Assembly: GCA_000091205.1 (NCBI GenBank)
Contig: AP006489.2
Source of the DNA: Cyanidioschyzon merolae
Lineage: Eukaryota
DNA: 64,000 bases
Direction: 5' to 3' (one strand)
The notes below the pieces were generated by a model. That model made no database searches. It was given only the letters and a program-made list of their open reading frames with translations, and was not told where the DNA came from. Shown piece after piece: positions 10,554-46,929 of this stretch (its first letter is position 1; every line of letters starts with the position of its first letter). Made by a program: the position numbers and the translations under genes.

Positions 10554-11718
10554 ATATTTACATTTATGTATATTTCTTAGACTTCAGGACTGTCTGGCGA
10601 GCACCGTGGGGCGAAAACGCTGCACGCCCATGGGATAAATTGATATAGACGTGCAAACGCCTCCCGGCTGCCTTCGACCAGCACTCTGCAATGAGCTCCA
10701 GATTCTCCGTGTAAACCTCGAACCTGAGAGGCTGCTCTACAAAGTTAGATCGCGTCAGCTCTCATGATCTCGTCTTCAGCACTGGGCATATCCTAAAAAA
10801 GCTGGCAGCGTTAAAGTATCGGTTCAGGAACTGAAAGCGTTTGTTGCTTCTGGTGGTACGCACCAATGCATCGATTCCTCGAACTCGAGCGCTCTGTCCG
10901 AGTACAATCTCCTCTAGGCAGACTTTCGTTCTTCTTCCTCGTCTTCGTCACTTGCTCTTATTTGCTCGACGATCACCGAGAAGAGGCTTTTTTCCGTTTT
11001 TTCTATGGCACTCGGCTATAACCGCCGTCCAGGTTCCGCGATTTATAGGTCCATATCTTTCCCTTGGATTTTTCATTTCTTCAAATGAAAGAACTTCGGA
11101 GACGTCTGCTATGCACCGCGACAAAACAATTGATTAAACGCATCTCGGGGTGAAACACAATTGACGTAAAAGACTGCAAAATGCGTGAAAAACTGCCAGA
11201 GGATGCGAAATTGACGCTCGAACGCTGCCATCAGCGTCCTTTGAGAGGTGACTACAGAATTGGAAGGAAAGGGAAAACCGTCGTATTGAACGCGGGCGAT
11301 ACGCTAGCAGAAAAGGAAAGCATCAGAAAAATCCCGGAGAGGCTGATGTAGACTACAGAGGGAAGAGACCCAAACTTTAGTACTTGCCTAAGATATGTTG
11401 TTGGACCTGTTCTACATTATACTCACGTGGATGTAGAAAAGCCACGGAAATAGTGTTTATCTGTCGTGAGCAAGTGCGCCTCGGCCGTTTTGCTGTGCAG
11501 CGCAATGCTCGCAAGCTAAGAAGGTCGGGAGCACGCATTTACACGGTTGTACAAGAGTTATGTCGCATCCAGGGGCCTGAGCAGTGCACTACAACGGGCG
11601 AGTGGGCAACTTTTTCTGATGCCACAGCGCCGTAAGGTTCATAGAGCGCTTTGGTGCAAGACCTCTGCAGATGAAGCTCACAGCCGCGCATACGAGAGAT
11701 TTTCTTCAGTGCTGATCA

Positions 11719-13821
11719 TTAAACCATCAGCTGGTTCGGAGGAACGTTCTCGTCAAATTGATGTTCCGGCTCGCGTTGCTGTTGAATACGGATATCCGAC
11801 GATTCTGCCTTTTTCTGGAGGCGCAGAGACTGGAACGCCGGCTCAAGCAACGAGGGCGACGCGTCACAGGATGTTTCGTCTGTACCGGCTCTTGTAACCG
11901 TACCGTCGATCTCATTTTCCGAGACGGCGGCCAATATGCTACTATATTTGCGATGAAGCGTGGCAAGATTGTTCTGAATAAAGACCTTGTGATCCGTTAA
12001 TCGCTCAACTACCAGAAGAAGGGAATCATTTGCCGAATCGTATTCAGCCTGTGTGCTCGCAGCAAGCGTTCGCCATTCTGTTCTTGCATGCTCTATGGCT
12101 TTCTGGCTGTTCGCTACGGTTTCCTGGATATTGTTTCGAAGATCGCAAATTTCCTCTTGGATTCGAGCATTCTTCTCCGAAGCGTCTGCGAGTCTCTTAG
12201 CGAGAGACTCGCGCTCGGCATTGTAGGTATTTTCGAGCCGTTGGAGCTTAGCTGTAAGGACGCGATTGTTTTCGCGCTGTAGTAATATTTTCTCCTCCAC
12301 CATGCGGATCGCGTCTTGCAACTCCAGTACTTCGCTATTCAATCTCTCCAGGTTCTCAGTTACCTGTTGCATATGCTCACGCAAGGCATCCTGTATAGTA
12401 GAATGAATTTTTTGAGCGTCGGCACTGCTAATGTTCTTGTCGATCGTAGAGGGCAGAACACCGTTGAGTGTGCGTGTTTCCTGGACTCCAACGCGTTCCA
12501 CAAGCGCGTGAATCCGGCGCAAAAGCTCATCTATCTTGCCTTGCAATGTCTCCTTGTCGCACAAAAGTTCTTTTCGACGTGCTTCTTCTTCTTCGCGCTT
12601 TTGCTGGGCGCGGTCGAGCGCCGCTCGCAGTTCGCGACGGCGACGCGATATACGCTCTACGTCGATGGATAAGTTTTGCTGCGCTTCCATTTTGTCTTTG
12701 AGTCCTTTCAGTTGCTCTATAAGACTGGTGACCTCTCTGGCTTTTTCCTGGACTTCCTCTTCGCGCTCGGCTAATTTTTTCTCCAGCATACTCTTGTGGG
12801 CCGTCAACTGTGCAATGAGTTTCCGAAATTTCTCGATATCCGAAAGGTAATCTTCCCTTCGTTGGCTCAGGTCAGAGATCCGGGACTCATTCTCTGAAAC
12901 CGCCAACTGTGCTCGCTGTAGCTGATTTTCGAGGTTTTGCATCTGAAGTTCAAGGTCGCGCGAGCGAGAAGTTGCAGCCGAATTGCGGGAGCTAAATACT
13001 CCTTCGAGCTCATTGTCAAACTCTTCAAAATCGTCCGAGCCTGCGAGGAATGAAGAATATGTGGCAGAGACGTATTCGAAGAAAACCTCCTCATCTGCTC
13101 GCGCTTTTAATTCGATGGATGCCTCGTCGTCAGCAGTTGTCTCTGCCTCGGGATCGGCCGCTCCATCGAGAATACCGACAGAAAACATGATGCGCTTCAT
13201 CTGCCGAGTTTTGATAGCGCTGTGTTCCACATCGAAAATCAGCAGCTCCACGAGCCAGGCCAAGCACCCGAGCAGCGTTGGCCAAGTGTGTGGGGACCCT
13301 ACCGCATAGAGCGCAGACTTGCTCACGTTAAAAGGGTATTTCAAGCGCTTCAGCAAGACCGGAACTTCGTCCTCGAACTTGGACGTCCACTGAAAATGCG
13401 GGTCAAGCCGTCGAATCAGAAAAGTAAAAATGGACTGAAAATCCTTTGCCGAAGGGCTCGACAGAGTCTTCAGAGAAACCGGATGGTCATAGTGGTGCTC
13501 TGTCAAATAGCAAATTAAACTCTTCATGCAAGCTTGCATATACTGTCGATCGGAGAGAGGTCTCGGATCGGTGCGCATGCCAGTGACCCCATATGAAACA
13601 GACTTAACGCTTTTCATCGTGCTTGCTGGCGTTCGCGGAACTGTGTTCTCGCAGTCGAAAGCCGTCGTCTGCAGACGCGCCCCCGGGCCCAAGGACATCC
13701 TCCTTGGGTTCGGCTGCCACTTCGTCGCAGACAAAGTGGTCGCAGACATTGGACCGGGGGCCTCAAGTTGCCGAAGCTGCTCTGCGAACATAAGCGGCGT
13801 GCTCCCACCAAAGCAGCACAA
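11719..13821 (-). CDS. NDC80: Kinetochore protein NDC80/HEC1
   Basis: The N-terminal calponin-homology region 'DPRPLSDRQYMQACMKSLICYLTEHHYDHPVSLKTLSSPSAKDFQSIFTFLIRRLDP' matches the NDC80 CH domain. The rest is long coiled coil (heptad-rich, E/K/Q/L-rich). The start is probably the internal Met at about 13749. Confidence 0.85.
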   Translation of the reverse strand: MCCFGGSTPLMFAEQLRQLEAPGPMSATTLSATKWQPNPRRMSLGPGARLQTTAFDCENTVPRTPASTMKSVKSVSYGVTGMRTDPRPLSDRQYMQACMKSLICYLTEHHYDHPVSLKTLSSPSAKDFQSIFTFLIRRLDPHFQWTSKFEDEVPVLLKRLKYPFNVSKSALYAVGSPHTWPTLLGCLAWLVELLIFDVEHSAIKTRQMKRIMFSVGILDGAADPEAETTADDEASIELKARADEEVFFEYVSATYSSFLAGSDDFEEFDNELEGVFSSRNSAATSRSRDLELQMQNLENQLQRAQLAVSENESRISDLSQRREDYLSDIEKFRKLIAQLTAHKSMLEKKLAEREEEVQEKAREVTSLIEQLKGLKDKMEAQQNLSIDVERISRRRRELRAALDRAQQKREEEEARRKELLCDKETLQGKIDELLRRIHALVERVGVQETRTLNGVLPSTIDKNISSADAQKIHSTIQDALREHMQQVTENLERLNSEVLELQDAIRMVEEKILLQRENNRVLTAKLQRLENTYNAERESLAKRLADASEKNARIQEEICDLRNNIQETVANSQKAIEHARTEWRTLAASTQAEYDSANDSLLLVVERLTDHKVFIQNNLATLHRKYSSILAAVSENEIDGTVTRAGTDETSCDASPSLLEPAFQSLRLQKKAESSDIRIQQQREPEHQFDENVPPNQLMV

Positions 13822-14871: not shown

Positions 14872-15981
14872 CTAAATAGCATCTTTCACTAGAGGCTCGT
14901 GAAAGGTTTTGTGCAGCCTTGCAGATTTAAGCGGGCCAATACCAGGAACAGATGCGAGCTCTTCTGCGCTAGCCGTAAGCACCCTGCGTAGGCTGCCAAA
15001 ATGTCGCAGAAGAATTGCGGCATCCGCCCGATTCACCGCGCGAGAGTTTGTAAGGAACGCTGCTGCCCGATGGAAAAGCAGATCTCCTCGCTGTACCGAG
15101 TCACCGGAGCCTTCGATGCGCGTCTCAGAGCCTCGGGGCCCCAGCAACGGACCTTGTAAACTGTCCGATGCCTTACCTTCTTGGACTTTGTAGCTCTCGA
15201 GTATTCGTGCTGCCTCGTCCAGATTCCATGCCACCATTAGAGTCAGCTCTTGAATGAGGCACATTTTCTCTAGCTTGGCGAGTGGCGATCCCTCCGGGAT
15301 TCCATCCTCACTCGCTCCGGAACCGAAGAAGACGCCGCCCTCGCTGTCCATCAGAAGCAAAAGTATTCGCAAGCGGAAGGATCTTCGTCCAAGCTTCCGA
15401 ACTCTATCGTATATATAGTCCGGTCGCAGAAGGTGAAACTTCATTGAAAGGAAGAAGGCGCAGGTATAGCTACCCAGAAGAAAGTCTGCGAAACGGAACT
15501 CCCCAAACTTCCACGGAACGTCCCGAAAGTGTTTCAAGAGCGGGTTACCTCTTTGAGTAAGGCTTACAAGTATATGCGATTTCGACTGCGCCTGTAGAAC
15601 CTCAAGCTGGCGAAGAAAATCAACGCTTCCACTAAAAGCCGCAAACTCAACTGACTTCGGCGAGCTTGACGCGTTGAGATCCAGGGCGCCTGGCAGTTCT
15701 TTGGCTCTAGTGGGTGCGTAACCATGATTTGCACTCCTTTCTCTTATGGTTTCAATCAAGTCGACACTCTTTGCGGAGCGTCTCGCCCGTTTGGCGCCTG
15801 GAGAAGTGACTGCGTGCAAGCTCGACTGCGTGCCGCTGCGTGCTGGACTTGAACCGGCAGCGGCAGAGGAGTCTGCACACGTTTCCGTTCGGCTGCATTT
15901 TGTTTGCTTCATCGTTGATGTACCGTTTCTTCCGCACAGTTGCGCCTTCCGTGTGCTCGTCTTGCCGCAAGTTCGCTGCAA
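14872..15981 (-). CDS. ERCC1: DNA excision repair protein ERCC1/Rad10
   Basis: 'ILVSLTQRGNPLLKHFRDVPWKFGEF..DFLLGSYTCAFFLSMKFHLLRPDYIYDRVRKL' is collinear with human ERCC1 '[60 protein letters not shown]'. A C-terminal (HhH)2 'SVPGIGPLKSARLHKTFHEPL' is also present. Confidence 0.85.
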   Translation of the reverse strand: MQRTCGKTSTRKAQLCGRNGTSTMKQTKCSRTETCADSSAAAGSSPARSGTQSSLHAVTSPGAKRARRSAKSVDLIETIRERSANHGYAPTRAKELPGALDLNASSSPKSVEFAAFSGSVDFLRQLEVLQAQSKSHILVSLTQRGNPLLKHFRDVPWKFGEFRFADFLLGSYTCAFFLSMKFHLLRPDYIYDRVRKLGRRSFRLRILLLLMDSEGGVFFGSGASEDGIPEGSPLAKLEKMCLIQELTLMVAWNLDEAARILESYKVQEGKASDSLQGPLLGPRGSETRIEGSGDSVQRGDLLFHRAAAFLTNSRAVNRADAAILLRHFGSLRRVLTASAEELASVPGIGPLKSARLHKTFHEPLVKDAI

Positions 15982-16478
15982 ACATCCGCTTACATGCGTG
16001 GTGCGTAGCTGCTAGTGTTCGGGTAGCCTTTCAACTCCACTCTGTACCCCTTCCGCTGCGACGGGCATGAGTCGAGCGAAATCAGTGTGCAATCTACCTC
16101 ATAGATCGTAGATGAGTTGCCTGCAGAATTTATTTTCTCTTCTGAATAGTACAAGTTTGACTGCATTCCTCATTCATACAAGTCATATCACAGTATTCAG
16201 ATGGTTGAGAAACACTGAAAGAAACAAGAACTCGCGCTTCCCGCCAAGAAGCGATATTCTCATAGCGTGTTTGCGGTCCATTGTAGAGAACGACCCGTGG
16301 ATCACCTAACGGGAACCGAACGCAACGATGGTTGCCAACACGGGTGTCCTTGCTTTCCAACACATTGTTCTTGTGGTCCTAAAAGCTCCGGAATACAGTC
16401 GGAAATGATGGCCAATATCATCACCGTGATTTTGCACCCAAATCGCGACGAAAGAGTCTCTGAAATGCTGCGGTCGTT

Positions 16479-16978
16479 ATGAAGCGCGCAGGACGTCATT
16501 TTCCTTCAGTCGATGAGACTTCCTTCGTACGAAACGGTCGATGCCTATATGGGTATTCGTGGAGAGGGAGCTCGATTTACGTACGATCGAGCTCGAAGAG
16601 AAAGAACTCAGCATCTGCTCAAGCTGCAGTGGACTATTCGGCGGCCTCCTTTTTGCTCGTAGGTATTGGCATGTAAGTCGAGGATCCTGGAGGCTCGTCA
16701 TCACCGGCTGAAGAAATAAAACGAAAAAATCCTCTTCTTGCCCACCGTCGCGCGAAGAAGTGCAAGCGGAGAAGAAGAAGAGTGGATATAGGCCGGAAAA
16801 TGCTTTTGCCTGTCAAGACGATGACGAGACTGTTTTGTTAGAGAGGGTGCGAGTTCTGAGAATCTTTGCACAGATGAGTTCATCCAGCGGCAATAAATGC
16901 AAGGTGTTCATGAACCGAGACCTAAACGCCGCCATCAATATCAGACAATGTGTGCTGCTGAAGACGAGACTCGAGTAG
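16479..16978 (+). pseudogene. Degenerate TnpB/Fanzor-like (RuvC-like RNA-guided nuclease family) gene remnant, frameshifted
   Basis: A RuvC-II plus zinc-finger signature 'SVDETSFVRNGRC' sits at 16506-16544. A textbook RuvC-III signature 'CKVFMNRDLNAAINIRQ' sits at 16898-16945 in a different frame, and I verified its codons directly. The two motifs are about 130 codons apart, as in TnpB/Fanzor. No intact ORF spans both. Confidence 0.5.
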
Positions 16979-19487
16979 CTGGTGGAATCTAACTTTGTGC
17001 TCAAGCCTTTCAGGCTCGAAGAATTTAGGGAAAAACTAATGCTGGCAGAAAGCGTCCTGTCAAAAAAGCTGGGAAGCGCCAGTGGGTGAGTGTATATTCA
17101 CCCTACATGATCAGGGACATTTTCTGCATCACAAACAACGTATGTTGAAGCGGTCGGTATACTCAGAGCCATGATTTCTGGAACACCTTAACACACATGC
17201 TATGTTAGTTTTGCTTGTTTTCTCACGGCCGGTCGGCTCCAGGAATGTAGTCTTTCCATTAGAGAAAACCTGCGGAGAGAATTCGTGCTGTCTCTGCTAA
17301 CTTGGGCAAAATGGCTTACATCTACAAGTGAGTCACTCTACAGCCTCCAGACGAATTAACCACCCATATAGCAGTCCTTATCCTAAACAACGCTCGCCCA
17401 AAACAGATTGCATGAAACTCCTTCTGCACGACTCTCTCATAATCATTCCACCCCATCCCATATGATCTCCTAGCAATGCTACAAAAGCAGCCAAAAATGT
17501 GGAAGGTTTCAGTATCGTTGGTTCTATCGGAGTTGAACAGATTCGGAATGATAAACGGAAAGACGCGCTCAAAACGGAGAGCTTCGAGCTCCGAATAACA
17601 AGCACTACCGACTTTGTATTTAAACGCAAACAACAACTATAGTTGCCACGAATGTTCGTCTCCCTCGAAGAGAATTCATTCGCGAGAATAGTAATACTTC
17701 TATTTGGGTGCTCAGAGAGGGCAAACCTCTGTCTTTAACGCATCGACACGGGAGCATGACGAATATATCAACCAAAGCCGCAATGTGGTCGTGTGGTCAC
17801 CTACAGATCGCCAAACGGACATGATCGTTCAGTCCCTAGCCCTTCCTCGAGACACATTTCATGGCTTCTCTTTCGCACATTCTTGTCGTCTGCTCCGAGC
17901 CAATGTCGCTTTTCCTCATGTAACAGCTGTAAAGGAGTACCCAGCTCAGATCGACTTTGAGCTGCGTTTTATACGGACCTATTCTCCCCGGTCCGATCCA
18001 GACCATGCCGTCTTCTCTACTCTTAAATGCCATATCCATGCTCAAAAATGACAAGCGGACTCATTTGCATCCATGGAACCGATATATGAAGGACGCCGTC
18101 ATGCATCGTATGGCACCTCTTCGGTGGAAAGCTCGCTCAGCATCTGCTGCATTTACGCTCCGCGCCAGTCCTTCTTCGTCGGGGTTCTGGACGCAAAGCG
18201 TTTACGTGTCCACATTCGCCTGAAAATTTTTAATCAAAACTTCGATCGACAAATGATGCTCTAGACATAAGAGACAACACAACGAAGTAGTAGGATAAGG
18301 GCTTTGGATACATGCATCTTAGGATACTTAACACGTCGCCGCGCCAGGTCTGCGATCGGAATATCTACAGCGATGGTATCAAAACGTGGCAAACCACTCT
18401 CACATACCGAGACCGTATCCGCGTCGGTCTCGAGCTGTTCATGAAGCGCACCGTGTAGCCGTTCTAGCCTCACCTAGCAGGCCGAGACACGGAGGGATCA
18501 GCGGAAGGGATCCTTGTGTGTCGATAAAGGCAATCGACGTGCTGGTCCTGGCAGTGGAGGTCGAGATGGCAAGGTGTCGGAAGAGGATGTTGCACAGAGT
18601 GCGACAGTCGCATCCGATCGTCCGAGCTCACCGTGTTGTTCTCCACCACAGAAATATGCACGTCGTATTCAAAGAGTTTTCAGCACCTTGATGCACCCCC
18701 CTTTGCAACTTCCGGCCCGACGTTTTCCCCGAACAGAGCCTTCCGGAGCAGATCAGGTTCTCTTTCCGAATGCGAGCTATATCGCGTATCCAAGCTTCTA
18801 TTAGATAAGCCTCTCGTGTGTCAAATCAAGACTCGCCTTATCAGCGTAGACGCTTCCGCCCCGAGCGACATTCTCAGCGAAGTGTGGCTGGTTTCTGCGG
18901 GCAAGTGTGGAGAATACGAACACTTTCGCTAAGAGAATAGAGGGTTCGCTCATGTTTTCTGGTTTCCAGACGGGAATGGAGACAATACTAACACAAACAA
19001 TGTATACTTTCGGAATATCAAACTGCACGTACTTCGTGGGACCTATGTCTGAAACAGTCTGCGAGAATCTTTCTGACCCGTTCAGGATAATTGATGAGAA
19101 GAGTGGACAGTGTGTTTGCATCTCAGGCATAAGAGCACGAACGGCCTCACAGTACCTCTGAAGGAAGATAGCGAAGCCAAAGTTCTGAACGGATAGCAGA
19201 TAAAAGTTTCTGGCTGTTCCTGGGCTCGGGATCATAGAGTCTGTGGTGTTTCGGAGCGGAGGAGCCATACAACCAAAAGTAATGACAGCGTCAGGACCCA
19301 GCTCGACGCTCAAGAACACTGTATTGACCTGTGGAAGCCTTGCACGATTTATTCAGAGAGTAAACGATCGCTCAAGTTCCTAATGCGTACGATCCTTGAC
19401 AGAAATAAATAAAACAATGTTGGGGTCAACGTCCGCTTCCATTGCACCGACGGAGGAAGCGTCCATATACCCATTAGTTCAGTCAGT

Positions 19488-19850
19488 TTGAAAACGGAAA
19501 GAACCGAGAAGTCGCTTCATCTGGTGGTAGGCGATGGCGCTGAATATGCTCTGGTGCGCAAAGCCTGCATTCTGGCTCCTGAAACTAGAGCATTCAGTAA
19601 GTGCAGGAACCAAGTCTGTGCGATTCCCGTCGATTATAGAAGGATGACAAACACGCCTTACGAGCGAGATTGCATGCCGAAACTGGAAGGCGAGTTCAAC
19701 ATGAAACAGAGGCGTTTGTATACGATGGTCTACAGGAGGCTGATCGAACATCAGACTGCGAGGAAATCGAGAATGAGGAACCTGCTTTTTGATGATTCCA
19801 GCAGCAACAATGCGTACCAGCACATTCTGCAGCGAGCATTGATCGCCTAG
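19488..19850 (+). pseudogene. Diverged paralog of the 242-aa RuvC-like protein encoded in the 22.3-24.5 kb palindrome
   Basis: Protein alignment: 'LVVGDGAEYALVRKACILAPETRAFSKCRNQVCAIPVDYRRMTNTPYERDC' against 'LVVANGAGRWASKKGTTPAPSTRTYKECARRFATIPVDEFRTSYTLHELGC', and 'RMRNLLFDDSSSNNAYQHI' against 'RMKFVNRDFNAPINKSR'. The catalytic E is replaced (VDY), so it is probably inactive. Confidence 0.4.
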
Positions 19851-22332
19851 ATCATTTTCCGGAAATTTCTCCTGCTTCCCGGGCGTTCAGTGGCCTTGTA
19901 TCGAGCGAACTTTCGAACGATTCGATTAGTACTCAGAGTGAGCATTCCGCTGGAATGTGGAAGACATTAGATCAAGAAGTTCAATAGCAAGGAGAGTGGA
20001 AATTTGATGCTCGCCCATGTGAAGGCACAGGTATGGTACGGTACAACAATCTAGCCAGGCTTGGGCGCCAAGCACGAGCGACGGAAACGGCTTTTCCTAG
20101 CAATTGATAGAATATAATGGTGTTCTGTTCTTAAATAATACTGAATATTGCATAAACAAGTGCAAAAATATCGAACGCATGCATCTATGCAGCCATGGCA
20201 CACGATTCGCTGCGAGGCCGGCTGCGGTGCCTCTCGTGAATGGTAAAGGGTCGCTGAATGTAAACCAGGATCTGCAAGTCTTTTTGGTGCGCTTGATCGT
20301 CTAAACCACCGGGGGATCAGCAATTTCGAGAGCGATATCGGCTTCCGAGAAGGCGTCCATTTTTCTGTATCAAAACTCCAAAGTCTACCAGCTACCGCCT
20401 TAGCTTCTCATTCGAGACATTAGTCTGTTCGCGGCATCATCCGAGTACAAAGTCCTCCAAGAGCGTCCACTGTTACCGTCTACATGGCCGCGCTACCGAT
20501 CACGCCCGAAGAGAGGACTGCTTTGCCATACGCTTGTCGGCCTGGGGCTTAAGCTCTCGAATACGTCGTAATATTTTCCAGCAAGCTCACGTTGCAGTGC
20601 ACAGAGACCGCCTCGCATGAACCACTTTTGTACGTTGAATCGAGGGTCTTGACTAGTGTCGACCGTATTACAGCTGTTTGCGGATCATGGAATGTTACCT
20701 ATTTTGACCTCGAGGTGACTATTTGTGGCAACACCGGTGTCTAGGCATGCGGTAGCGCTCCTCGGGCCGTAGGACGCTTTTACCCTATCTTGTGTTTCGC
20801 TTCCATGTCCCATAATGTATAGGCAGAAGCGTTGAACGTTTCACACAGAATACGCAGCCATGCAACGTGTGAAAATTGGAGTCGACTCCTAAGCGTATTG
20901 CAGTAGCATGAAGAAACAACAGAAGCTCATGTTAGTTATCTCATTCGAGATAAAGACGGGTTACTGGATTTTGCAGTCATGTAGTTCGCGAAGAGGCTTC
21001 AGGATCCTTTTTAAAAGGGACAAGGCACATGCCTCGTCTTGAAATACTGGTTCATGTCCACAACGCGTTTGTCGGCCAACGACCATTTATTATGTGTTTG
21101 ATCCTCGAAGCGAAACCAATACTGGACTCTGCATAGTCAATGGCAAAGCATTCGCTCTAGTGTCAGATTTCGGTATGAGTAAATCTTTTGCTCCAGGGAC
21201 CGAAGATACGGTTCCGCACCACATCCCGATACGCTGGTGTAGTGGCCACCTTAAGGGACCACGTGCAATGGTGTGTCCATTGCAGACGTAAAACCTAGAA
21301 TCTCAGGGACTCGCTCGCGGAGCCGTGCTCCCGCAGTGCATCGTGCAATGTCATGTTGGTCGAAGACAGTATTTTCTGTCTCTCCAATGCTGCTCGAGAA
21401 ATGAAACCCATCCCTTCTTCGCATGAAGTGCATGTGTGTTGGGTTCTCAGTGAGGTAGGCATTCATCAAGAACCCCCAGCTGATCTAATAAGGAACACTC
21501 AGGTGCGCTCTTGGGCCAAGCATGAAGCTATATCGTCCGTTGAAAACTCCCGGCGGTCGTTCGATTCGCAAGCACCTTCCCTTATTCTATAATACGCAGT
21601 TGTTGTGTCCTCGTCCACGAATCCAAAAATTACGCTGGATTTTCGTGACCCGGCCTGGCGGTCTGTAGAATGTGTACTCGCGCTGGAGTCTGCGACGTGT
21701 CTGTTTTTAACAATACCTTCGATATGGGAGCTCATGCGCAAAGCTTGATCAAGATTGCTCAACTTGAGCATCGCATGCATAGGGACGGCAATCACGACTT
21801 CAGGCTCTCTACGAGACGTAATTATCCGTTCTTCAGTGCGAGTCTCCGACTGAGGTGACAGGGCGTTGATCGCTCGGCCAGAAGGCGGCGACCCGACAAT
21901 GCAGCAACGCACGTGAAAGCAGGCACGTTCACTCCCCAGAATGCACTGCGCAGAGTGTAGCTCCTGGACCATGGAGTCCTCCTCGAACAGAGGCCCTAAC
22001 AAGCCCGTGGGAAAGGTTGCCGAATCCGAATAAACCACTTCGACATTGGACCAACACCGAAGTTTTGTTAAATCTGCATATACTTGGTAAAGCGCAGCGT
22101 ACCAGCGCTCTGGAGGCGAGTCCACACAGCTCTTCGCAAGACGAATCGCATCGTGCCCAGCCAGGAAACTGCTCCGGTCTCGTTCCGCAACACTGTCGCT
22201 TTCCACCTCTACCATAAAGAAAAGCGCGCTCTCGCAGGTTCGAAATGCCGGACTTTCCAGCCCCAACGATTGACTCGGAAAACGTCCGATTCGATGAACC
22301 TGACTGCTTGGAGCCGCACGCACGCACGGACA

Positions 22333-23300
22333 AAACGCCTTTCAAAAGAAAAATGCTGTCGCCGGCCGTGTACAGGAGTGGCGAATGGTGCGCCCTAGAC
22401 TAGACATCTCCAACCGACGTGCAGACGCCTCCCAGTGCTTTTGGAGCGGCCACCTACTACTGCTTCCAATTGTTTCTCATATAGTTCGACTTTGAGAGGT
22501 TCTCTTACAAAGTTCTCTCTTGTCCATTCTGGAGGACTTTTCTCTAGTACCGCACATCTACTTTTATTGATAGGGGCGTTAAAGTCTCGATTCACAAACT
22601 TCATTCGTTTCTTGCCATCACTGGTTGTACTTACTAATGGAAGTAGTCCACGAACTTTCGCCCTCCTTTCCATTTGCTCTTCCGTTAGCGGTCCGTACTT
22701 TTTTATATCCTCAGGGCTCTGCTGACACTTTTCCATCTCGACCCTCTGAAGTGCACACCCCAGTTCATGGAGTGTATAGGACGTTCGGAACTCATCTACA
22801 GGTATCGTAGCGAAACGCCTTGCGCACTCCTTGTACGTTCTTGTTGACGGAGCTGGCGTAGTCCCTTTTTTGGACGCCCAGCGCCCTGCTCCGTTTGCTA
22901 CAACGAGCCTCTCACTCTCGTCCTTCTTGAGGGCGCTCAACTCATTGAAAAAGTTCGCGAACGCCCGCTGCTTTTCACAATACAAATTCATTCGCAAACG
23001 AGCCCACCGGGGCTTTGTGCATTCTTTCCAAAGGCTCTCGTCATGAGCAGCGTGAATTTTCATAACCTCTCGAAAAGCTTCAATGTCGGCTCCCCGGCTC
23101 GTCACATGGCTGATCGCTTCCAAATTCCCTTAACACCTGAATTCGATGTCTCACTTTTCTTCCTTGCATTCATTATACGGGATTCTCGATGGTATCTCGC
23201 TCATGAGAGCATCAACAGACTTATGTCTTTCTGACGTAAGTTACCATCAGTACCATCTTCCGCACGCTTGGGTGCTGCGACAGTTATGATATTTGTGTTC
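22333..23300 (-). repeat. Left arm of inverted repeat
   Basis: Reverse complement of 23546-24513. The outer boundary is defined where the flanks diverge: left rc '...GAAAGGCGTTTTGTCCGTG' against right '...GAAAGGCGTTTGTTTTCGG'. Confidence 0.7.
22395..23123 (-). CDS. Compact (242-aa) RuvC-like TnpB/Fanzor-related protein, copy 1
   Basis: It carries 'ATIPVDEFRTSYTLHELGC' (RuvC-II E plus TS plus Cys) and 'KKRMKFVNRDFNAPINKSRC' (RuvC-III RDxNAxxN). A possible degenerate RuvC-I 'LVVANGAGRW' lies only ~35 aa upstream of the E. An in-frame stop lies 2 codons upstream of the listed TTG start in the (+) copy, so the frame is at most ~245 aa. That is much shorter than known TnpB (~400 aa) or Fanzor. 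Confidence 0.55.
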   Translation of the reverse strand: MEAISHVTSRGADIEAFREVMKIHAAHDESLWKECTKPRWARLRMNLYCEKQRAFANFFNELSALKKDESERLVVANGAGRWASKKGTTPAPSTRTYKECARRFATIPVDEFRTSYTLHELGCALQRVEMEKCQQSPEDIKKYGPLTEEQMERRAKVRGLLPLVSTTSDGKKRMKFVNRDFNAPINKSRCAVLEKSPPEWTRENFVREPLKVELYEKQLEAVVGGRSKSTGRRLHVGWRCLV

Positions 23301-23321
23301 CAAGGGTCCACACCAACGACA

Positions 23322-23460
23322 AAGTCCTTACCCTGCACCTCCTGCATCGCAGGATCCGCACTCTTCTCATCTACATGTTTCGCCTAGCCGTCTACAAGGT
23401 TGTACTTCTCCAACTCCTGCGTCGCAGGATCCGCATCCTTCTCATCTACATCCTTCGCCA
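23322..23460. repeat. Tandem ~65-bp direct repeat (2 units) at the palindrome centre
   Basis: Unit 1 is 'CCTGCACCTCCTGCATCGCAGGATCCGCACTCTTCTCATCTACATGTTTCGCC'. Unit 2 is 'CAACTCCTGCGTCGCAGGATCCGCATCCTTCTCATCTACATCCTTCGCC'. Each contains a GCAGGATCCGC core with a BamHI-site mini-palindrome. Confidence 0.6.
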
Positions 23461-23545
23461 CGGGCGAAGCCGAGGACGGACCAGGAGGCGGGCCCGACAG
23501 CGCTGGAGGTGCAGAAGAACGATTTCTCGTTGGCGTGGACTCTGG

Positions 23546-24513
23546 GAACACAAATATCATAACTGTCGCAGCACCCAAGCGTGCGGAAGATGGTACTGAT
23601 GGTAACTTACGTCAGAAAGACATAAGTCTGTTGATGCTCTCATGAGCGAGATACCATCGAGAATCCCGTATAATGAATGCAAGGAAGAAAAGTGAGACAT
23701 CGAATTCAGGTGTTAAGGGAATTTGGAAGCGATCAGCCATGTGACGAGCCGGGGAGCCGACATTGAAGCTTTTCGAGAGGTTATGAAAATTCACGCTGCT
23801 CATGACGAGAGCCTTTGGAAAGAATGCACAAAGCCCCGGTGGGCTCGTTTGCGAATGAATTTGTATTGTGAAAAGCAGCGGGCGTTCGCGAACTTTTTCA
23901 ATGAGTTGAGCGCCCTCAAGAAGGACGAGAGTGAGAGGCTCGTTGTAGCAAACGGAGCAGGGCGCTGGGCGTCCAAAAAAGGGACTACGCCAGCTCCGTC
24001 AACAAGAACGTACAAGGAGTGCGCAAGGCGTTTCGCTACGATACCTGTAGATGAGTTCCGAACGTCCTATACACTCCATGAACTGGGGTGTGCACTTCAG
24101 AGGGTCGAGATGGAAAAGTGTCAGCAGAGCCCTGAGGATATAAAAAAGTACGGACCGCTAACGGAAGAGCAAATGGAAAGGAGGGCGAAAGTTCGTGGAC
24201 TACTTCCATTAGTAAGTACAACCAGTGATGGCAAGAAACGAATGAAGTTTGTGAATCGAGACTTTAACGCCCCTATCAATAAAAGTAGATGTGCGGTACT
24301 AGAGAAAAGTCCTCCAGAATGGACAAGAGAGAACTTTGTAAGAGAACCTCTCAAAGTCGAACTATATGAGAAACAATTGGAAGCAGTAGTAGGTGGCCGC
24401 TCCAAAAGCATTGGGAGGCGTCTGCACGTCGGTTGGAGATGTCTAGTCTAGGGCGCACCATTCGCCACTCCTGTACACGGCCGGCGACAGCATTTTTCTT
24501 TTGAAAGGCGTTT
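23546..24513 (+). repeat. Right arm of inverted repeat
   Basis: See left arm. The inner boundary is the shared 'GGAACACAAATATCATAACTGTCGCAGCACCCAAGCGTGCGG'. Confidence 0.7.
23723..24451 (+). CDS. Compact (242-aa) RuvC-like TnpB/Fanzor-related protein, copy 2 (1 aa different: I vs T)
   Basis: Identical to copy 1 apart from KSIGRR versus KSTGRR. It has the same RuvC-II and RuvC-III motifs. The listed start is TTG, so the true initiator is uncertain. Confidence 0.55.
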   Translation: MEAISHVTSRGADIEAFREVMKIHAAHDESLWKECTKPRWARLRMNLYCEKQRAFANFFNELSALKKDESERLVVANGAGRWASKKGTTPAPSTRTYKECARRFATIPVDEFRTSYTLHELGCALQRVEMEKCQQSPEDIKKYGPLTEEQMERRAKVRGLLPLVSTTSDGKKRMKFVNRDFNAPINKSRCAVLEKSPPEWTRENFVREPLKVELYEKQLEAVVGGRSKSIGRRLHVGWRCLV

Positions 24514-27500
24514 GTTTTCGGGGTGTTTCCGGGCTCAACAAGAAACGCTCGTTCCCATTTAGATGCATGTCGTTGCATAAATCGGACTCGAACCAGTTGC
24601 TGGTCAGTCTGGTAGTGGAGCACGCGAAACGGGCGACACCACCTCCCGAGGAGAGTGGAATTCTCTTCGACGAGAAGGGTTCGCAAATAAGCGAGCACCA
24701 TGCTGCACCCGCATTGGAAGGAAGCTCTGCAACGTGGCCTTTTGTGCCCGCAAGGCCTAGAGAAGTTTCGTCGGGAAGCGATAATGCTTGTGAAAACGGC
24801 CGCGCTCTCAGAAGATTGCACCGGACGCCTTCACCGGAAGTAACTGGCTCTGGTTCACCGACTAGTCACGCCAACGTAGTCGGAACCTGTTTCGTCACCG
24901 GGTTTGTGGTGGAAAAAGACGACTCTGGAACGGACGTAACCGGATGCGGAGAGTCACGTGCGTCCGAGAAAACATCAGGTCGTCCTTTTCGTCGTGAGGT
25001 TACAGCTGCAGACTCCAGGCTGAACCTGAGCGGGGAGCACTTGGCCTGTGTGTCGCTTGAGCAGCTTCGCTCTCTACCTTCGCTAGCCGCGCTGAATGAA
25101 ATATCTCTTGCATCGAATAGTTTACGAAGTGTCGACTTGCGTCCACTTGCTTCCTGCCGCTCGCTGCAGGTCCTGTTACTGAACGATAACTTACTGGAAC
25201 GCATTGACTTGACGCCATTGGCAAGTTGCTCGCAGCTTGAACGACTCTGGCTGCATAGGAACAAGCTGAAACATATCGATCTGAGTCCGCTGGCCATAAG
25301 CGGAAGTGCGTTGAGGTCGCTGTACCTCAGCCGCAACGAACTGCAGGAGATCAGTCTTGCTCCTCTTGAAAAGTGCTCGAAGCTTCGCGCTTTGCAGTTA
25401 GAGGGCAACCCAAACCTCAAAGAAATAGACGTCACCCCACTGTTTGCGTGTAGAGAGTTGAGCAGTTTCGAAGCCCCCCCTCAGGCTCGGCTTATAGTTC
25501 GTGAACTGGCCGCACTGGAAGTGCAGCGCCGCAGTTATCAACAAGATTGCAACTCACTGGCCAATGTAGAGTCCAGTGAGAGCGCTCGCACCGCTGCGAT
25601 CATGCCGAGCAAACTTGTGTTACCAAAGGTATTCCGCCGCAGAGGTATTGTCTTACACTGGATCAGAGAGGCATTGCCTGACGCGAACTTGAGGGATTTA
25701 ACTGGGCAACGATCTTTGAAAGAGAACAGTGTGAATGCGGAGCTGCAGGATGCCGAACGCGGCGAGGGAATTCAGACGAACGCTTCTATGAATATAATTG
25801 CACCTGCATCCGAGGAAGCACTCTCGTCCGTGGCCGAGTTGCAAACGGGCCCCACGGCATCGAGGAACTTGGAGTCAGTGCAAGAGGACAAAACGCCTCT
25901 TTGCGCTCTGATTGTCGGGATGACCACGCATCGCCGAATATCAACTTGTCGGTTACTTGAGCAGTCGGGGACGTTGAGGGTCCTCCAATCTCCTTCAGCC
26001 GCAGCTGCACTGGATGCTTACATCAGCGCACCAGACGGGATTGACTTGATTCTGATGGAACCTGCTGAATATGAGGTCTTTTCCGAACAAGCGCAGGCAG
26101 CCTCCATTGAGATCAGCGTGCCGGTGGTGGCGGTTGGTCCTCCGGAGTTTGAACGCTCTGGCGTTTTTCGGCGGTGTATTGCCATAGGTGCAAGGGGTTT
26201 CATATCTTTTCCGTTGGATAATCGTGATGCACAGGCCTTGACGGAGGTTGCCCGCAGCTTTCGCGCATCTCGCCAAACTTCTGCTTCGCAGGTTTTGAAG
26301 GAATCCAGTGTATCCGAGTTGCTTTTGCCTACACAAGAGGTTCGAGCGGATTCGACAAGTGTTAGCCGCGATCTCTCGCCGATGAGCATGACGAACGGAA
26401 GCGATGCATCCAAGTATGGGGCAGGTATAGAGCCTGACTCCAAATGGGTCCCGTCCTGGTGGCAAAACTCCGATTCCATTCGCAAGGAAGGAAACTCCAG
26501 TCCGGCAGCCGTTTCCGACCGGATGGACACGTTTCTTTCGAAATCGGAAGGTGTCGAGGATATAGCAGAGGAGTCTTCTACGTACCGTTTTATCCAGCGC
26601 GCTGGAATTGGACACCTCCGCTCGGGGAGTCCTATATGCCGCAGTGGTTCCGAGAGCTCGCAATTTGCTTGTGAAAGAGCTGAATGGGCCAGAGTTGAGG
26701 CTATTTTCGCGCATCGAGATAAGCGACCGAGTCGAGAGCCTTGCTTCCAACTGCAGTTCATGCAACATTGCTCGAATCCTGCCACGCTTTTGATACCGAC
26801 CGATGGTTACCATTCTGCTGGCCTGGAGAGATTTGCTGATATCGCAGCAGTCTGTCGACTACCAAAAACCAGTGCTACTGTGCTGTTTCTACGTGTGCTT
26901 TCCCACCAGGATAAGCTCGCTAACAGCGGTACAAGCTCGATATCCAATGCTTTAACGCGATCAGCGAGCGAGTCGGTGTCTTCGAATTGCTGGTTGCGAA
27001 ACATCCATGTAGATGCCTTTTATCACTTTTACCGTTGCAAGCTCGCACCGATCCGATCACCGCTTGAGCGCTTCTATAATGTAATTGCATCTTCATGGCC
27101 TGGAAGTGACATACACGATTCATCTTCGTCCCTGTATGCGGAAGGAAAAATACGCAGACTGAAAGAATCCAGGGCAAGGTACGTTTCGAGATACACAATA
27201 ACCCTTTTGATTCAGGAGCTGGTTTATCGGAAGCTTTGTGTCGGGAGAAACGCTTCTGGCGTTGCAGTCCCGTATCATGCAGCGAAAGCAAATCAGGGAC
27301 AGATGAGATCTGCCCGGTATTCGTATCAGGGGAAGAGCTTTCTGTCTTCGTCAATCAATCAGAGCGGAAGCGCATCAGCGATGGAGTCCGCACACTTCTC
27401 CAGCAAGAACGGAGAAGCTGCGAGGAATGCTTTCCTTGCCTTTCGGGATGAGGTTTGTGAGGTTCTCCTTACCGCCTCCGTCGCAAGTGCATGTGTCTGG

Positions 27501-28556
27501 TTTCATCTAGGTGGCGGAAATCGAAACTATGTTCCGCTATCGATTCTGCGAAAGGTGCGCTTTGCTGAGGCAATCTTCGCGGCTGAACGCGGCATCATTG
27601 TGGATAGTTTGATGGAAATGCTTACCGGGAATGGCATCGCGCTGGTTGCCCAGAAGGAGCTCGAGACCGTCTGGAACTATAACGCACGCACTGGGACTGC
27701 AACATCGGAGCAACTAGCGTCGCGAGATGCTCCGAGCTTTGAATGCTCGATTCCTTCTGTCTCTGGATTGTCTTCCTCGTTCCCAGAACAGCAAAGCGAC
27801 GGCGCTGTCACGCAGGCGCCTTCAGGGGCTACCGAGTCCAGGGAGCAGATAGCGGGTGCAATACGTTCTTCATTTCTTCCGGACACATTTGAGTTTTCGA
27901 AATGGTGCAGAAAATTCTGTATTTCGCGAGAGGCTGCCGTATCCTACTTCCTGGATCGGGGTTCGCTCGTTCCCAAGGCAGTAGAGCAAGTGTTGAATCG
28001 TTTCCGTGGATTATCGCTCGTACAGAAACCCGCGTCCAGTGAGCACAGCGCTGCAACGCCTCAGCTCCAGGACGAGAAGACGGTTCCCGAGGATCAGAAT
28101 CTGGCACCGTTCAGCAAGTTAGGAAACGCTTCCGTAGGTGACTCTCTCAGTCCGTCGGCTTTCGTGCACCTCTTCCTGGCGTTGTGTGATCCTGGCAACG
28201 AGAAAGCACTGCACATCTTTTTTGATATTATGGATCTCGACATGGATGGGTTTATCTCAGCGGCAGATGTTGCGTACTTTTATCGAGAAAAATGCGAGAT
28301 CGCGTTTCGAGAGGGCCTAGTGCTCGCGTCTGCAAATAATCTATGGGCGCAGTTGGTAGATATGTGCAGAACGTCGGCAAATGATCCCAAACTTGAATCC
28401 AAGGGCATTACACTGAAAATGCTTCGGGATATCGGAGAGAGGCGTCGCTCCAGTTTCATTCGCAATGTGCTTTTCAAGGACGATGGCATGGCACTGGTAG
28501 ATATTCAACAGACTTTGCGGTTGGAAAACAGTCTCGCGCTCCTGAGCCAACCGTAG
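24501..28556 (+). CDS. Leucine-rich-repeat protein with C-terminal PP2A regulatory subunit B''(PR72/TON2)-type EF-hand domain
   Basis: N-terminal SDS22-like LRRs: 'LSGEHLACVSLEQLRSLPSLAALNEISLASNSLRSVDLRPLASCRSLQVLLLNDNLLERIDLTPLASCSQLERLWLHRNKLKHIDLSPL...'. The C-terminus 'FVHLFLALCDPGNEKALHIFFDIMDLDMDGFISAADVAYFYREKCE...KGITLKMLRD' is collinear with PR72 '[41 protein letters not shown]...GKITLQDLKR'. The listed start is TTG inside the repeat arm. The true start is probably the ATG at about 24567 (MSLHKSDSNQ). Confidence 0.75.
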   Translation: MKGVCFRGVSGLNKKRSFPFRCMSLHKSDSNQLLVSLVVEHAKRATPPPEESGILFDEKGSQISEHHAAPALEGSSATWPFVPARPREVSSGSDNACENGRALRRLHRTPSPEVTGSGSPTSHANVVGTCFVTGFVVEKDDSGTDVTGCGESRASEKTSGRPFRREVTAADSRLNLSGEHLACVSLEQLRSLPSLAALNEISLASNSLRSVDLRPLASCRSLQVLLLNDNLLERIDLTPLASCSQLERLWLHRNKLKHIDLSPLAISGSALRSLYLSRNELQEISLAPLEKCSKLRALQLEGNPNLKEIDVTPLFACRELSSFEAPPQARLIVRELAALEVQRRSYQQDCNSLANVESSESARTAAIMPSKLVLPKVFRRRGIVLHWIREALPDANLRDLTGQRSLKENSVNAELQDAERGEGIQTNASMNIIAPASEEALSSVAELQTGPTASRNLESVQEDKTPLCALIVGMTTHRRISTCRLLEQSGTLRVLQSPSAAAALDAYISAPDGIDLILMEPAEYEVFSEQAQAASIEISVPVVAVGPPEFERSGVFRRCIAIGARGFISFPLDNRDAQALTEVARSFRASRQTSASQVLKESSVSELLLPTQEVRADSTSVSRDLSPMSMTNGSDASKYGAGIEPDSKWVPSWWQNSDSIRKEGNSSPAAVSDRMDTFLSKSEGVEDIAEESSTYRFIQRAGIGHLRSGSPICRSGSESSQFACERAEWARVEAIFAHRDKRPSREPCFQLQFMQHCSNPATLLIPTDGYHSAGLERFADIAAVCRLPKTSATVLFLRVLSHQDKLANSGTSSISNALTRSASESVSSNCWLRNIHVDAFYHFYRCKLAPIRSPLERFYNVIASSWPGSDIHDSSSSLYAEGKIRRLKESRARYVSRYTITLLIQELVYRKLCVGRNASGVAVPYHAAKANQGQMRSARYSYQGKSFLSSSINQSGSASAMESAHFSSKNGEAARNAFLAFRDEVCEVLLTASVASACVWFHLGGGNRNYVPLSILRKVRFAEAIFAAERGIIVDSLMEMLTGNGIALVAQKELETVWNYNARTGTATSEQLASRDAPSFECSIPSVSGLSSSFPEQQSDGAVTQAPSGATESREQIAGAIRSSFLPDTFEFSKWCRKFCISREAAVSYFLDRGSLVPKAVEQVLNRFRGLSLVQKPASSEHSAATPQLQDEKTVPEDQNLAPFSKLGNASVGDSLSPSAFVHLFLALCDPGNEKALHIFFDIMDLDMDGFISAADVAYFYREKCEIAFREGLVLASANNLWAQLVDMCRTSANDPKLESKGITLKMLRDIGERRRSSFIRNVLFKDDGMALVDIQQTLRLENSLALLSQP

Positions 28557-29379
28557 GTAGATGAACGACGAGTGCGTCAGGTTGACTTCAGGGTTTGACA
28601 ATCTTGTACTGTCGCATTGGAACGACTGCGTTCTCCTGGTGCTGGACAATGGAACTCAGCTGTACATGAAGGACACCGCATATTTCGTAATCGCGCTCGC
28701 ATCGAGCTCGCTGCAGTTGCATGCTCTTTTCGGACGATTAACGGCCATGCACGGCTGCGAACATGATTATGCAGTTCGCGTCGGCGTCGCTTCTAGAGGT
28801 GTACGCCCAAAGATCCGTTCCAGTGCGCAGAAATCTCTTATGTCTGCTCTGAGCGAAGCTCGCATCGGCACTTACGGAGCTGCTTCTGTTCCCAAAGAGA
28901 CCAAATGGAAGTCTCAAGCATTTCCGCAGGCGGACACCAATAGTGCTTCCGTAGCTGAACGAGCTATCGCCCGCGCAAGTGCACCTTGCAAATGGATGGC
29001 GCGCTCCTGTGAACGCACTGGAGCCGGCTTGACACCCATGCCAGAATAGCGTGGAATGTGTCCACTTTGCAAAACTCGGACGTACACGCTGCACCCATGT
29101 CAGAATAACATGGAGCAGCTCCTCCAATACGGGCGCACGCGCCTCAAGTGGGTCCATTCCCATTGTCATGAACACCAGCCTCGCGTCCTTGTTCTCCAAC
29201 TGTTTCTTTTTCTCTCTCTTATCTCGGGCTGTAAATATGCTAGTCTCACGTTCATTCAAGCTACATTGTGACCTTGCTAAGGATTATGATGGGTGCATAA
29301 ATGCTCCGATTTCGTGATTGCCGTCTGATTTCAACGCATTTCATGCATCGATGGAAGTTGAGATCTAGGCATCGCTTGC

Positions 29380-30190
29380 AATATTCATCTCCTCTGTATA
29401 CAGCCTAGGTGCGCATTTCGCAACAATGACAGTTGGATGAGATGAGGTGTCCCCATATGTCCATCACGCCTGCCTCTTCTCCGCAGGCCGATCCAAGCCG
29501 TATGAACACGTGCTTGATCACTGAATACATGCTCTTGACGAACACAGAAGGCTTCCCACGAGCTCACCTCCATGTCGACGCCCCGTGCCGTAAAATATGA
29601 ATATGGGCTTCTTCTGGGCGGTCACCCCAGCGAGTACTCTGGATGCTGCATATGCAACGGTAAGCAATTCGATTTGATGAATGATTTGGAGAACGCGATG
29701 CGGTCCATGATGAAACACGCAGTCTACGAAAAATCTGGACTGGAGATCAACTCGAGGAATCTGGAGCCGGCTACGCTCCCTACTTGGAAGCTGGGGACAC
29801 ACTCTCTACTGGCAGCAATCGCTGCATTGGCTAAAGTCTGAAACCAAGGCCTCTTGCTTACGAAATAAACCGGACGGGAGCCCCTGGGCACATGTCGTGT
29901 AAGCGGTGCCATGCTGTTGCCGAATGCCGTATCGTCGAGAGCCACAAATGTGAGAAGATTCATCCTTCGACCGGAACTGGTTCTTTGACGTGGAAAGTTC
30001 AGTGATCATTCGGCATGAGCCTGTGATCAGATCTTTAGGAGACGGCGTCGAGTTTTTCCCCAGCACTCCAGCGGACGAATCACCGCGCCTACGAGTTCGC
30101 GTGAAACAGAAAGATCGAAAACTTGAGGAATTCGTGATTGGAACACGTTGCACGTTGGAAAACGAGAAGATTGGAGGCTTGTACGTGTGA
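29380..30190 (+). repeat. Dispersed repeat family, copy B (core ~29603-30140)
   Basis: 'ATATGGGCTTCTTCTGGGCGGTCACCCCAGCGAGTACTCTGG...GATTTGGAGAACGCGATGCGGTCCATGATGAAACA...GTCGAGTTTTTCCCC...GAAAGATCGAAAACTTGAGGAA' aligns with copies A, C and D. Confidence 0.6.
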
Positions 30191-46727: not shown

Positions 46728-46929
46728 GAGTCTTCTACGGCTTTCTAGACCTCATTTCGTGTAGCAGGTTCCACGGCATTGCCTACCTCTGGATTTCGGA
46801 AATCATTGTACAAAAAGACACTTTACCCCCATGTCAGAATATCGTAGAAAGGGTCAACAGCGCTAAGTCGGCGAGCAATGCATAGTTTCGGTTTCTTCTC
46901 TCTATCATCAATACTAGCCATTGCGGGGT

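Follow-up and report, generated by a model that had tools for sequence, protein, structure and literature searches.

The 64,000-nt stretch of DNA analysed here, referred to as the window, was found to belong to chromosome 7 of Cyanidioschyzon merolae 10D, ten of its open reading frames (ORFs) being identical to BAM79595–BAM79615 (CMG locus tags; 584,452-bp record). The region between positions 15,982 and 24,513 is very probably an ordinary transposon-littered intergenic stretch, containing one host gene, at least five decayed pieces of the transposable element CMe-1A, and a duplicated and gene-converted palindrome. No copy in the window is functional or able to encode an active nuclease. Both the family and its reconstructed ancestor were already known, the repeat having been counted in 2007 and classed as Fanzor1 in 2013.

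The identity of the element was established from the palindrome, each arm of which carries an ORF of 242 aa. When this ORF was used as a query together with the upstream out-of-frame stretch 'FLVGVDSGNTNIITVAAPKRAEDGTDGNLRQKD', hundreds of homologs of up to 516 aa were retrieved at 70–78% identity, and the consensus of the closest of these is the same sequence as the CMe-1 protein (Additional file 3, Bao and Jurka, 2013). The CMe-1A DNA consensus (Additional file 2 of that paper) aligns with both arms at 86% identity over 1030–1050 nt, to its last base. The '242-aa protein' is the C-terminal third of the 734-aa CMe-1 protein. According to Bao and Jurka (2013; PMC3627910), CMe-1A has a 3169-bp consensus encoding the 734-aa Fanzor1 protein CMe-1, is present in C. 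merolae in about 150 copies (each ~80% identical to the consensus), lacks terminal inverted repeats (TIRs), has undetermined target site duplications (TSDs) and shares its first 635 bp with TE-N2_CMe. Nozaki et al. (2007; PMC1955436) describe an interspersed repeat of 253 copies and 3.2 kb average length, which makes up ~5% of the genome, is transcribed and carries an ORF weakly similar to WSV486 of white spot syndrome virus. CMe-1A is this 253-copy interspersed repetitive element. An earlier first-pass annotation of the window, made from the sequence alone, had recommended reconstruction of the intact ancestor; the CMe-1A consensus and the 734-aa CMe-1 protein had been published in 2013.

A DNA profile was built from 196 CMe-1A copies and run over the window with nhmmer. 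The following pieces of CMe-1A (positions in the window; consensus positions in brackets) were delimited in the region:

16663–16780, plus strand: relic (a), 5' piece (904–1007), with the ORF start 'VEDPGG...'; nhmmer E=7e-8, blastn 81% over 54 nt.
16842–17082, plus strand: relic (a), 3' piece (2839–3083), with RuvC-III 'NRDLNAAINI' and the family-specific C-terminal tail; DNA E=4e-26, protein E=1e-7.
18224–18481, plus strand: candidate N-terminal part (~1248–1501) of the old copy to which relic (b) belongs; weak, nhmmer E=0.022.
19145–19913, plus strand: relic (b), an old and strongly decayed CMe-1-type copy (about 2222–2996), with 'LVVGDGAEY' at the former RuvC-II position.
20314–20532, plus strand: CMe-1A 5'-region fragment (27–234), part shared with TE-N2_CMe; DNA profile E=1.5e-6.
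22333–23345, minus strand: left arm of the palindrome, 3' part of a 5'-truncated CMe-1A (about 2138–3169, plus TTT), with RuvC-I remnant GVDPWNTN.
22395–23123, minus strand: 242-aa ORF of the left arm.
23346–23501, minus strand: spacer of 156 nt, the left copy's upstream continuation, with two 25-aa acidic repeat units (about 2050–2138).
23502–24513, plus strand: right arm, a 5'-truncated CMe-1A (2159–3169, plus TTT), with RuvC-I remnant GVDSGNTN.
23723–24451, plus strand: 242-aa ORF of the right arm.
22337–23384 (minus), 23394–23486 (minus) and 23453–24509 (plus): DNA-profile matches in the palindrome (2093–3167 and 2110–3167).

All relics in the window belong to the one family, CMe-1A. The arms resemble the published element in aligning to consensus positions 2093/2159–3169, in ending at its 3' terminus and in having no TIRs, and the other relics match it too; the window copies differ from it in being truncated, deleted or decayed. 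Taken together, CMe-1A-derived relics account for roughly 8% of the window.

The assignment of the family to Fanzor1 drew on profile and structure comparisons. Pfam searches with the ORFs and seven full-length homologs gave no usable match, and the narrow family profile found no match among PDB sequences, for which reason a broader profile was used. A search of 1.84 billion representative proteins with the family profile yielded 1516 relatives at E≤0.001, and the broad profile is an alignment of 42 full-length relatives that are 29–43% identical to the family; PF07282 is touched, weakly, by six of these 42. Against PDB sequences the broad profile matched the Fanzor1 proteins of Parasitella parasitica (PpFz, 9CF0; E=9e-22), Spizellomyces punctatus (SpuFz, 8GKH; E=3e-13) and Guillardia theta (GtFz, 9CER; E=4e-7), with alignments to the solved Fanzor1 proteins spanning the WED motif F.GT.ETDGV, the RuvC-I DPG, 'DEFRTS' (the alternative Glu) and the RuvC-III 'NRD.NAA'. 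An AlphaFold model of the full-length relative P0009, which unlike the window copies is not truncated, was built with the 42-relative alignment and obtained with a predicted local distance difference test score (pLDDT) of 75.7 and a predicted template modelling score (pTM) of 0.69. The top seven Foldseek matches of this model in the PDB are Fanzor1 entries (E=2e-10 to 7e-6), among them SpuFz (E=2e-10, TM 0.52), PpFz (E=4e-10) and GtFz (E=7e-6); Cas12 and TnpB entries rank next. The TnpB/Fanzor nature of the relics, proposed in the first-pass annotation from short motif matches, is therefore upheld, as the broad profile and the predicted structure match Fanzor1 across domains and the motif matches extend into a longer alignment. 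From their homology to solved and biochemically tested Fanzor1 proteins, intact CMe-1 members are predicted to be RNA-guided RuvC endonucleases carried by the element; an example of an intact member is the 772-aa stop-to-stop open frame at L008 831–3146.

Fanzor proteins are characterized by a DPG motif at RuvC-I and by loss of the canonical RuvC-II Glu, which is replaced by an alternative Glu located ~45 residues downstream and six residues before a zinc finger (PMC10530073, PMC10711439). In CMe-1 these positions read GADPG (GADPGNTN) at RuvC-I, 'VVAYGAG' at the former RuvC-II and 'VDEFRTS' at the alternative Glu, the last being 38 residues past the canonical RuvC-II site and aligning to 'IDEFRTS' of PpFz and 'LDEYKTS' of SpuFz. 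At RuvC-III the family has FVNRDFNAAINI, the arms FVNRDFNAPINK and relic (a) FMNRDLNAAINI. The three catalytic residues, namely the Asp of DPG, the alternative Glu of VDEF and the Asp of NRD, are invariant in the 42 relatives, and all three are retained by the palindrome copies. The true RuvC-I of these copies is encoded ahead of the 242-aa ORF and in a different frame, where the Asp is kept within a degraded DPG context (GVDSG in the right arm, GVDPW in the left). The arms read VVANGAG at the canonical RuvC-II site, and the 'ANGA/GDGA' motif that had been labelled RuvC-I-like aligns with 'VVAYGAG' of the family and 'VVMGDWS' of SpuFz; it marks the place of the former canonical RuvC-II, a site without a catalytic role in Fanzors (PMC10530073, PMC10711439).

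The CMe-1-like clade resembles SpuFz1 (8GKH), PpFz1 (9CF0) and GtFz1 (9CER) in the WED motif 'F.GT.ETDGV', DPG, the alternative Glu, 'NRD.NAA' and the overall fold, and differs from them in two features, at an identity of just 12–18%. Firstly, no CxxC...CxxC zinc finger was found between the alternative Glu and RuvC-III of CMe-1, which reads VDEFRTSYTHHELGC...GLLALVSTTSDGKKRMEFVNRD where SpuFz and PpFz have CPRC/CPKC and C..N..C; the four cysteines are absent throughout the clade in the 42-relative alignment. Bao and Jurka placed CMe-1 in Fanzor1 despite the missing cysteines (PMC3627910). Secondly, 25-aa acidic tandem repeats (consensus roughly AAKDEEKKEAGPATQEVEDNDLVV) are found between WED and RuvC-I, with one to seven units in P0001–P0022 and with disorder predicted (pLDDT<50). 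Each 75-nt unit of this repeat contains the 13-nt palindrome CCTGCG(A/T)CGCAGG.

Relic (a) had been placed at 16479–16978 on the strength of 'VDETSF..C' (~16506) and a RuvC-III-like 'CKVFMNRDLNAAINI' at about 16890–16940. The second of these was confirmed by both the protein profile (E=1e-7) and the DNA profile (E=4e-26 for 16842–17082), and the true extent of the relic is 16663–17082. 'VDETSF' has no family match and lies upstream of the N-terminal piece at 16663–16780; because the Glu motif of Fanzors sits between the N-terminus and RuvC-III, in the part that is deleted here, it is out of order and is therefore a chance match. A DDE transposase reading of 16479–16676 was also considered and rejected, the DDE_3/DDE_5 scores being below threshold (E 0.03–0.3) and the segment occupying a 5' non-coding position. 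Relic (a) ends before the element terminus (consensus 3083).

As its 3' piece is joined directly to its 5' piece, relic (a) is a copy of a ~0.6-kb internally deleted CMe-1A derivative (consensus ~780–1013 joined to ~2830–3167). The same deletion junction was identified elsewhere in the window at 10610–11179 and at three further loci (L069 6251–6856, L021 8510–9069 and L045 8511–9070). Its recurrence at several unrelated sites points to a short non-autonomous derivative that itself spread, and this derivative seems to have been mobilised as an element starting after the TE-N2-like 5' region.

Relic (b) is more decayed. The homology of 19488–19850 to the 242-aa protein family, noticed by eye, was supported by the protein profile (E=4e-12 over 19413–19847) and by tblastn (29% over 145 aa), with the DNA profile giving a weak match (E=1e-4; 19369–19869, consensus 2447–2952). 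The absence of a RuvC-II Glu was likewise noted correctly: it is the alternative Glu of Fanzor1 that is missing, the relic having VDY in place of the family's VDE. No RuvC-III motif could be recognised in relic (b), which stops short of the element terminus (consensus 2996). The weak piece at 18224–18481 is collinear with it, and part of that piece (18324–18452) has a weak match to the broad protein profile (E=0.007); relic (b) may thus extend to 18224. The relic is an older copy whose catalytic Glu is gone, and the fragment at 20314–20532 is a scrap of the element's 5' end.

The proposal that two different TnpB/Fanzor lineages are represented here, with complementary motif losses that reflect decay or repurposing of the 242-aa family, draws on relic (b). 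This relic is just ~29–33% identical to CMe-1, its best single-sequence matches, at 28–33% identity, fall on CMe-1A members and sister clusters alike (the best blastx matches being to the sister clusters P0255/P0217, by a small margin), and it lacks the alternative Glu. However, the CMe-1A-specific profile gives relic (b) 42 bits, compared with 15 bits from the broad profile. Relic (a) is nearer to CMe-1A than relic (b): it is matched by the CMe-1A DNA profile and has the C-terminal tail typical of the family, so that a single clade for both relics and the arms is already indicated at profile level. The argument from motif losses also fails: the 'RuvC-I-like' label was wrong (PMC10530073), the 242-aa protein is a mere third of its parent, the arms keep all three catalytic residues, and purifying selection is not clearly visible in the variation between strains. 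A second lineage is therefore very unlikely, no basis for one having been seen, and relic (b) is best regarded as an older copy of the CMe-1A family.

The first-pass annotation had counted at least four relics. These are real, but the count is too low, as it leaves out 20314–20532, the weak piece at 18224–18481 and four further CMe-1A/TE-N2 relics outside the region (DNA profile E from 1e-54 to 1e-6):

71–883, plus strand: consensus 2178–3000.
10610–11179, minus strand: consensus 785–1013 joined to 2837–3125.
30775–30946, minus strand: consensus 362–534.
50142–50424, minus strand: consensus 3–262.

The palindrome, 2.2 kb in all, consists of two 5'-truncated 3' halves of CMe-1A arranged head-to-head. 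It was confirmed as an inverted repeat of 991–1013 nt with a 242-aa ORF in each arm: a repeat search returned arms at 22333–23323 and 23523–24513 with 99% identity, which a gapped alignment widens to 22333–23345 and 23502–24513. Over 1015 alignment columns the arms differ at 12 positions; 11 of these are confined to the 45 nt next to the spacer, leaving a single difference in the outer ~970 nt. The spacer, read on the minus strand, takes the start of the left copy to about consensus 2050; it has profile matches at 23394–23486 (minus), the translation 'AKDVDEKDADPATQELE' and a direct repeat at 75-nt spacing. The start of the right copy is put at consensus 2159 by the gapped alignment, 2140 by blastn and 2110 by the DNA profile, and a junction filler of about 10 nt lies at 23486–23500. 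Roughly the first 380–420 codons (the REC/WED part) are missing from both copies. In addition, both arms have a −1 frameshift at consensus 2377 (window 23718/23719), downstream of which lies the portion that forms the 242-aa ORF, and both 10D arms have a TGA stop codon at 23643–23645, mirrored at 23201–23203. The right arm has an additional −1 shift at consensus 2180. Owing to the 5' truncation, the frameshift and, in 10D, the stop codon, the palindrome copies are dead.

The arms are far closer to each other than to any other copy, the maximum identity to other copies being 82.8% (median 79.9%) in 85 alignments, and the next best protein in a collection of 5.8 billion sequences being 78% identical. 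The palindrome is common to several strains, which made a comparison informative; this comparison relied on short-read metagenome contigs of closely related strains. Contig L002 spans the spacer and the right arm together with 152 nt of the left arm. L084 includes part of the spacer as well as the right arm and the flank with the neighbouring gene CMG083C, and L085 joins 93 nt of one arm to the spacer, the other arm and the same CMG083C flank. Both 10D arms share five to eight changes derived in 10D, among them a cluster at 23635, 23637, 23642, 23643 and 23667, which includes the TGA, together with 23921 and 24126; contigs L084–L086 retain the consensus state at the 10D-derived sites. At the one comparable site in L085 (homologous to 23591/23255) both arms carry the alternative base. 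The arms thus evolve in concert between strains, for which arm-to-arm gene conversion would be the simplest homogenising process. Such conversion would keep the arms near-identical, while the innermost ~45 nt drifted apart; 11 of the 12 differences lie at the inner boundary because this boundary would escape homogenisation. In contig L085 (1–1263, compared with window 22333–23595) the spacer is inverted relative to the CMG083C flank, unlike in 10D, L002 and L084, which reflects either a recombination (flip-flop) isomer or short-read path ambiguity.

The ampliconic palindromes of the human Y chromosome are large palindromes homogenised through arm-to-arm gene conversion. The C. merolae palindrome is similar to these in its near-identical arms, unique spacer, divergence concentrated at the boundary and co-variation of arms between strains. 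It differs in being ~1 kb rather than tens to hundreds of kb long and in consisting of a dead transposon fragment, with no evidence of a selected gene. In the consulted passages of Bao and Jurka (2013) and Nozaki et al. (2007), no description was found of the palindromic pair, its concerted evolution or the short deletion-derivative subfamily.

With respect to origin, a local inverted duplication of one 5'-truncated copy is favoured because the arms are mutually closest by far and share the frameshift; the palindrome would then be two 3' halves of that one copy, placed head-to-head. Alternatively, two closely related 5'-truncated copies could have inserted independently at the same T-rich spot in opposite orientations and been gene-converted afterwards. 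This would agree with the occurrence of head-to-head inverted CMe-1A pairs (75–82% identity) at three other loci, with the differing 5' truncation points and differing 3' tails past GGCGTTT of the two arms, and with a possible target preference hinted at by the shared TTTGKTG of 3' flanks and the T-rich 5' flanks. It is nevertheless unlikely, since both arms have the same −1 frameshift and the same 14% divergence from the consensus and no other copy is more than 83% identical to them. Gene conversion between copies only ~80% identical would also be inefficient. The other inverted pairs are located at L011 (21–1609/2980–4557), L061 (1–1752/2426–4199) and L066 (618–1257/4991–5625); every inverted pair observed has the head-to-head arrangement, with no tail-to-tail pair among them. 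The outer flanks of the palindrome have no more residual homology than chance would give (score 17; mean of shuffled sequences 17.8). A fold-back origin at the 13-nt core CCTGCG(A/T)CGCAGG (23341–23353 and 23416–23428) finds no support in its present form: the left arm has the core at its inner edge, but the mirrored site of the right arm matches at just 7 of 13 positions.

Misassembly is a well-known problem with inverted repeats of 1 kb, and the spacer orientation differs between L084 and L085. It is nonetheless extremely unlikely that the palindrome is an assembly artefact, given that the 10D genome was finished from telomere to telomere (PMC1955436), that unique host genes flank both sides and that three independent metagenome assemblies (L002, L084 and L085) hold the centre and parts of both arms.

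A role for the palindrome in the host was also considered, either through domestication of the 242-aa ORFs as RuvC halves or through use of the outward-facing 3' ends as promoter or 5' untranslated region of CMG080C and CMG083C. The palindrome fills the whole interval between these two divergent genes, each arm reading toward the neighbouring gene and the right arm ending 54 nt before the CMG083C ATG, and the family is reported as transcribed by Nozaki et al. (PMC1955436). No lesion interrupts either 242-aa ORF, in contrast to the ~70 codons upstream, where a stop and a frameshift occur. Between strains 13 sites of the ORF vary, seven of them synonymous and six non-synonymous, which is an excess of synonymous changes. 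However, when polarised with the consensus, the 10D lineage has no synonymous and three non-synonymous changes, and the variants are clustered, as conversion tracts would give. With neither the WED/REC half nor the RuvC-I strand, the ORF cannot form a RuvC active site alone, and NCBI has no protein record for it. There is thus no convincing constraint on the ORF, the balance leaning towards neutrality, and a host function is quite improbable. The same slim chance is given to the palindrome being a maintained structure in which the outward 3' ends drive or start CMG080C and CMG083C, or the 242-aa ORFs are expressed; were this true, gene conversion would preserve both arms, and recombination between arms could flip the spacer (as L084 and L085 differ).

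Several observations weigh against an ordinary stretch of decayed CMe-1A with a locally duplicated palindrome. The Fanzor link needs the broader profile or a predicted structure, close members having no Pfam match. The proportion of synonymous changes (7 of 13, against ~22–30% expected, the figure for uniform mutation being ~22%; one-sided p about 0.01–0.06) leaves a small opening for constraint on the ORF. Co-variation of the arms in the second strain was seen at one site, and short-read contigs cannot phase the arms. An origin of the palindrome by duplication is probable rather than proven: the left copy is longer at its 5' side, the 3' tail of the right copy (TTTGTTTTCGGGG) is the more typical one, neither arm is therefore a simple subset of the other, and two independent insertions homogenised later by conversion retain a small share of the probability.

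The termini of the element could be compared across copies. Both arms end in GCATTTTTCTTTTGAAAGGCG followed by TTT, at 22336 and 24510, and so reach the canonical CMe-1A 3' terminus (...TTTTCTTTTGAAAGGCG), without TIRs. A total of 32 distinct 3' flanks (L004–L083; 22330–22335/24511–24526 in the window) begin with T (32/32), T (30), T (23), G (22), K, T (24) and G (24), while on the 5' side TTTTT(C/T) directly precedes the element in 18 distinct flanks. These flanks point either to a published consensus that lacks a few bases at each end, perhaps about 7 nt at the 3' end, or to a preference of the element for T-rich target sites. Among 34 copies the final 130 nt are conserved, and the terminal 20 nt are capable of forming a hairpin, with 85% of cells paired compared with at most 62% when the partner is slid. 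No compensatory change was detected in this 3'-end hairpin, two hand-drawn registers showed no significant covariation, and RNAalifold gave three invariant pairs.

The region had been described as holding no conserved host gene, which proved incorrect. The host genes in and beside it are as follows:

14872–15912, minus strand: ERCC1-like gene, an annotated neighbour.
21499–22215, minus strand: CMG080C (BAM79601), Sen15-domain host protein; exact NCBI/UniProt protein match, Pfam Sen15 E=3e-8.
24567–28556, plus strand: CMG083C, leucine-rich repeat (LRR)/EF-hand protein, an annotated neighbour.

The Sen15 score of CMG080C exceeds the curated Pfam threshold and the UniProt naming agrees. With this gene inside it the island is not free of host genes, and the stretch actually without genes runs from ~15.9 kb to 21.5 kb. 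This gene-free stretch (15913–21498; 5.5 kb) has a G+C content of 44–51% compared with ~53–57% in the flanking genes, in a genome that is very compact, and adjoins the NDC80 gene (11719–13821); it was considered as a conceivable site of the chromosome 7 centromere. No protein record exists for the locus tags CMG081 and CMG082, which fall between CMG080C and CMG083C; the two palindrome ORFs lie in just this gap and may at one time have been provisional gene models. Scans of the entire window for tRNAs and Rfam families gave no match. An unrelated dispersed repeat without a long ORF is present in three direct copies at ~64% identity (29310–30137, 46890–47877 and 52856–53765), and a Pfam search with one ORF overlapping it (53134–53736) gave no match. 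A perfect tandem duplication with a 54-nt period was also observed at 42335–42476, within a long minus-strand ORF (41856–44492).

The first-pass annotation was thus correct in its by-eye detection of Fanzor-type relics and wrong in several details of interpretation. At the level of the family the novelty is small, and the useful outcomes are corrections concerning the catalytic residues, the chance motif and the host gene in the island. Three small additions can be made to what is known of CMe-1A: a 1-kb palindrome of dead Fanzor1 fragments whose arms evolve in concert, in a genome of 16.5 Mb, a ~0.6-kb deletion derivative that recurs and itself appears to have spread, and flank motifs that point to a T-rich target or to slightly short ends of the published consensus. 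These additions could aid in defining where CMe-1A ends, what its guide RNA is and how it moves.

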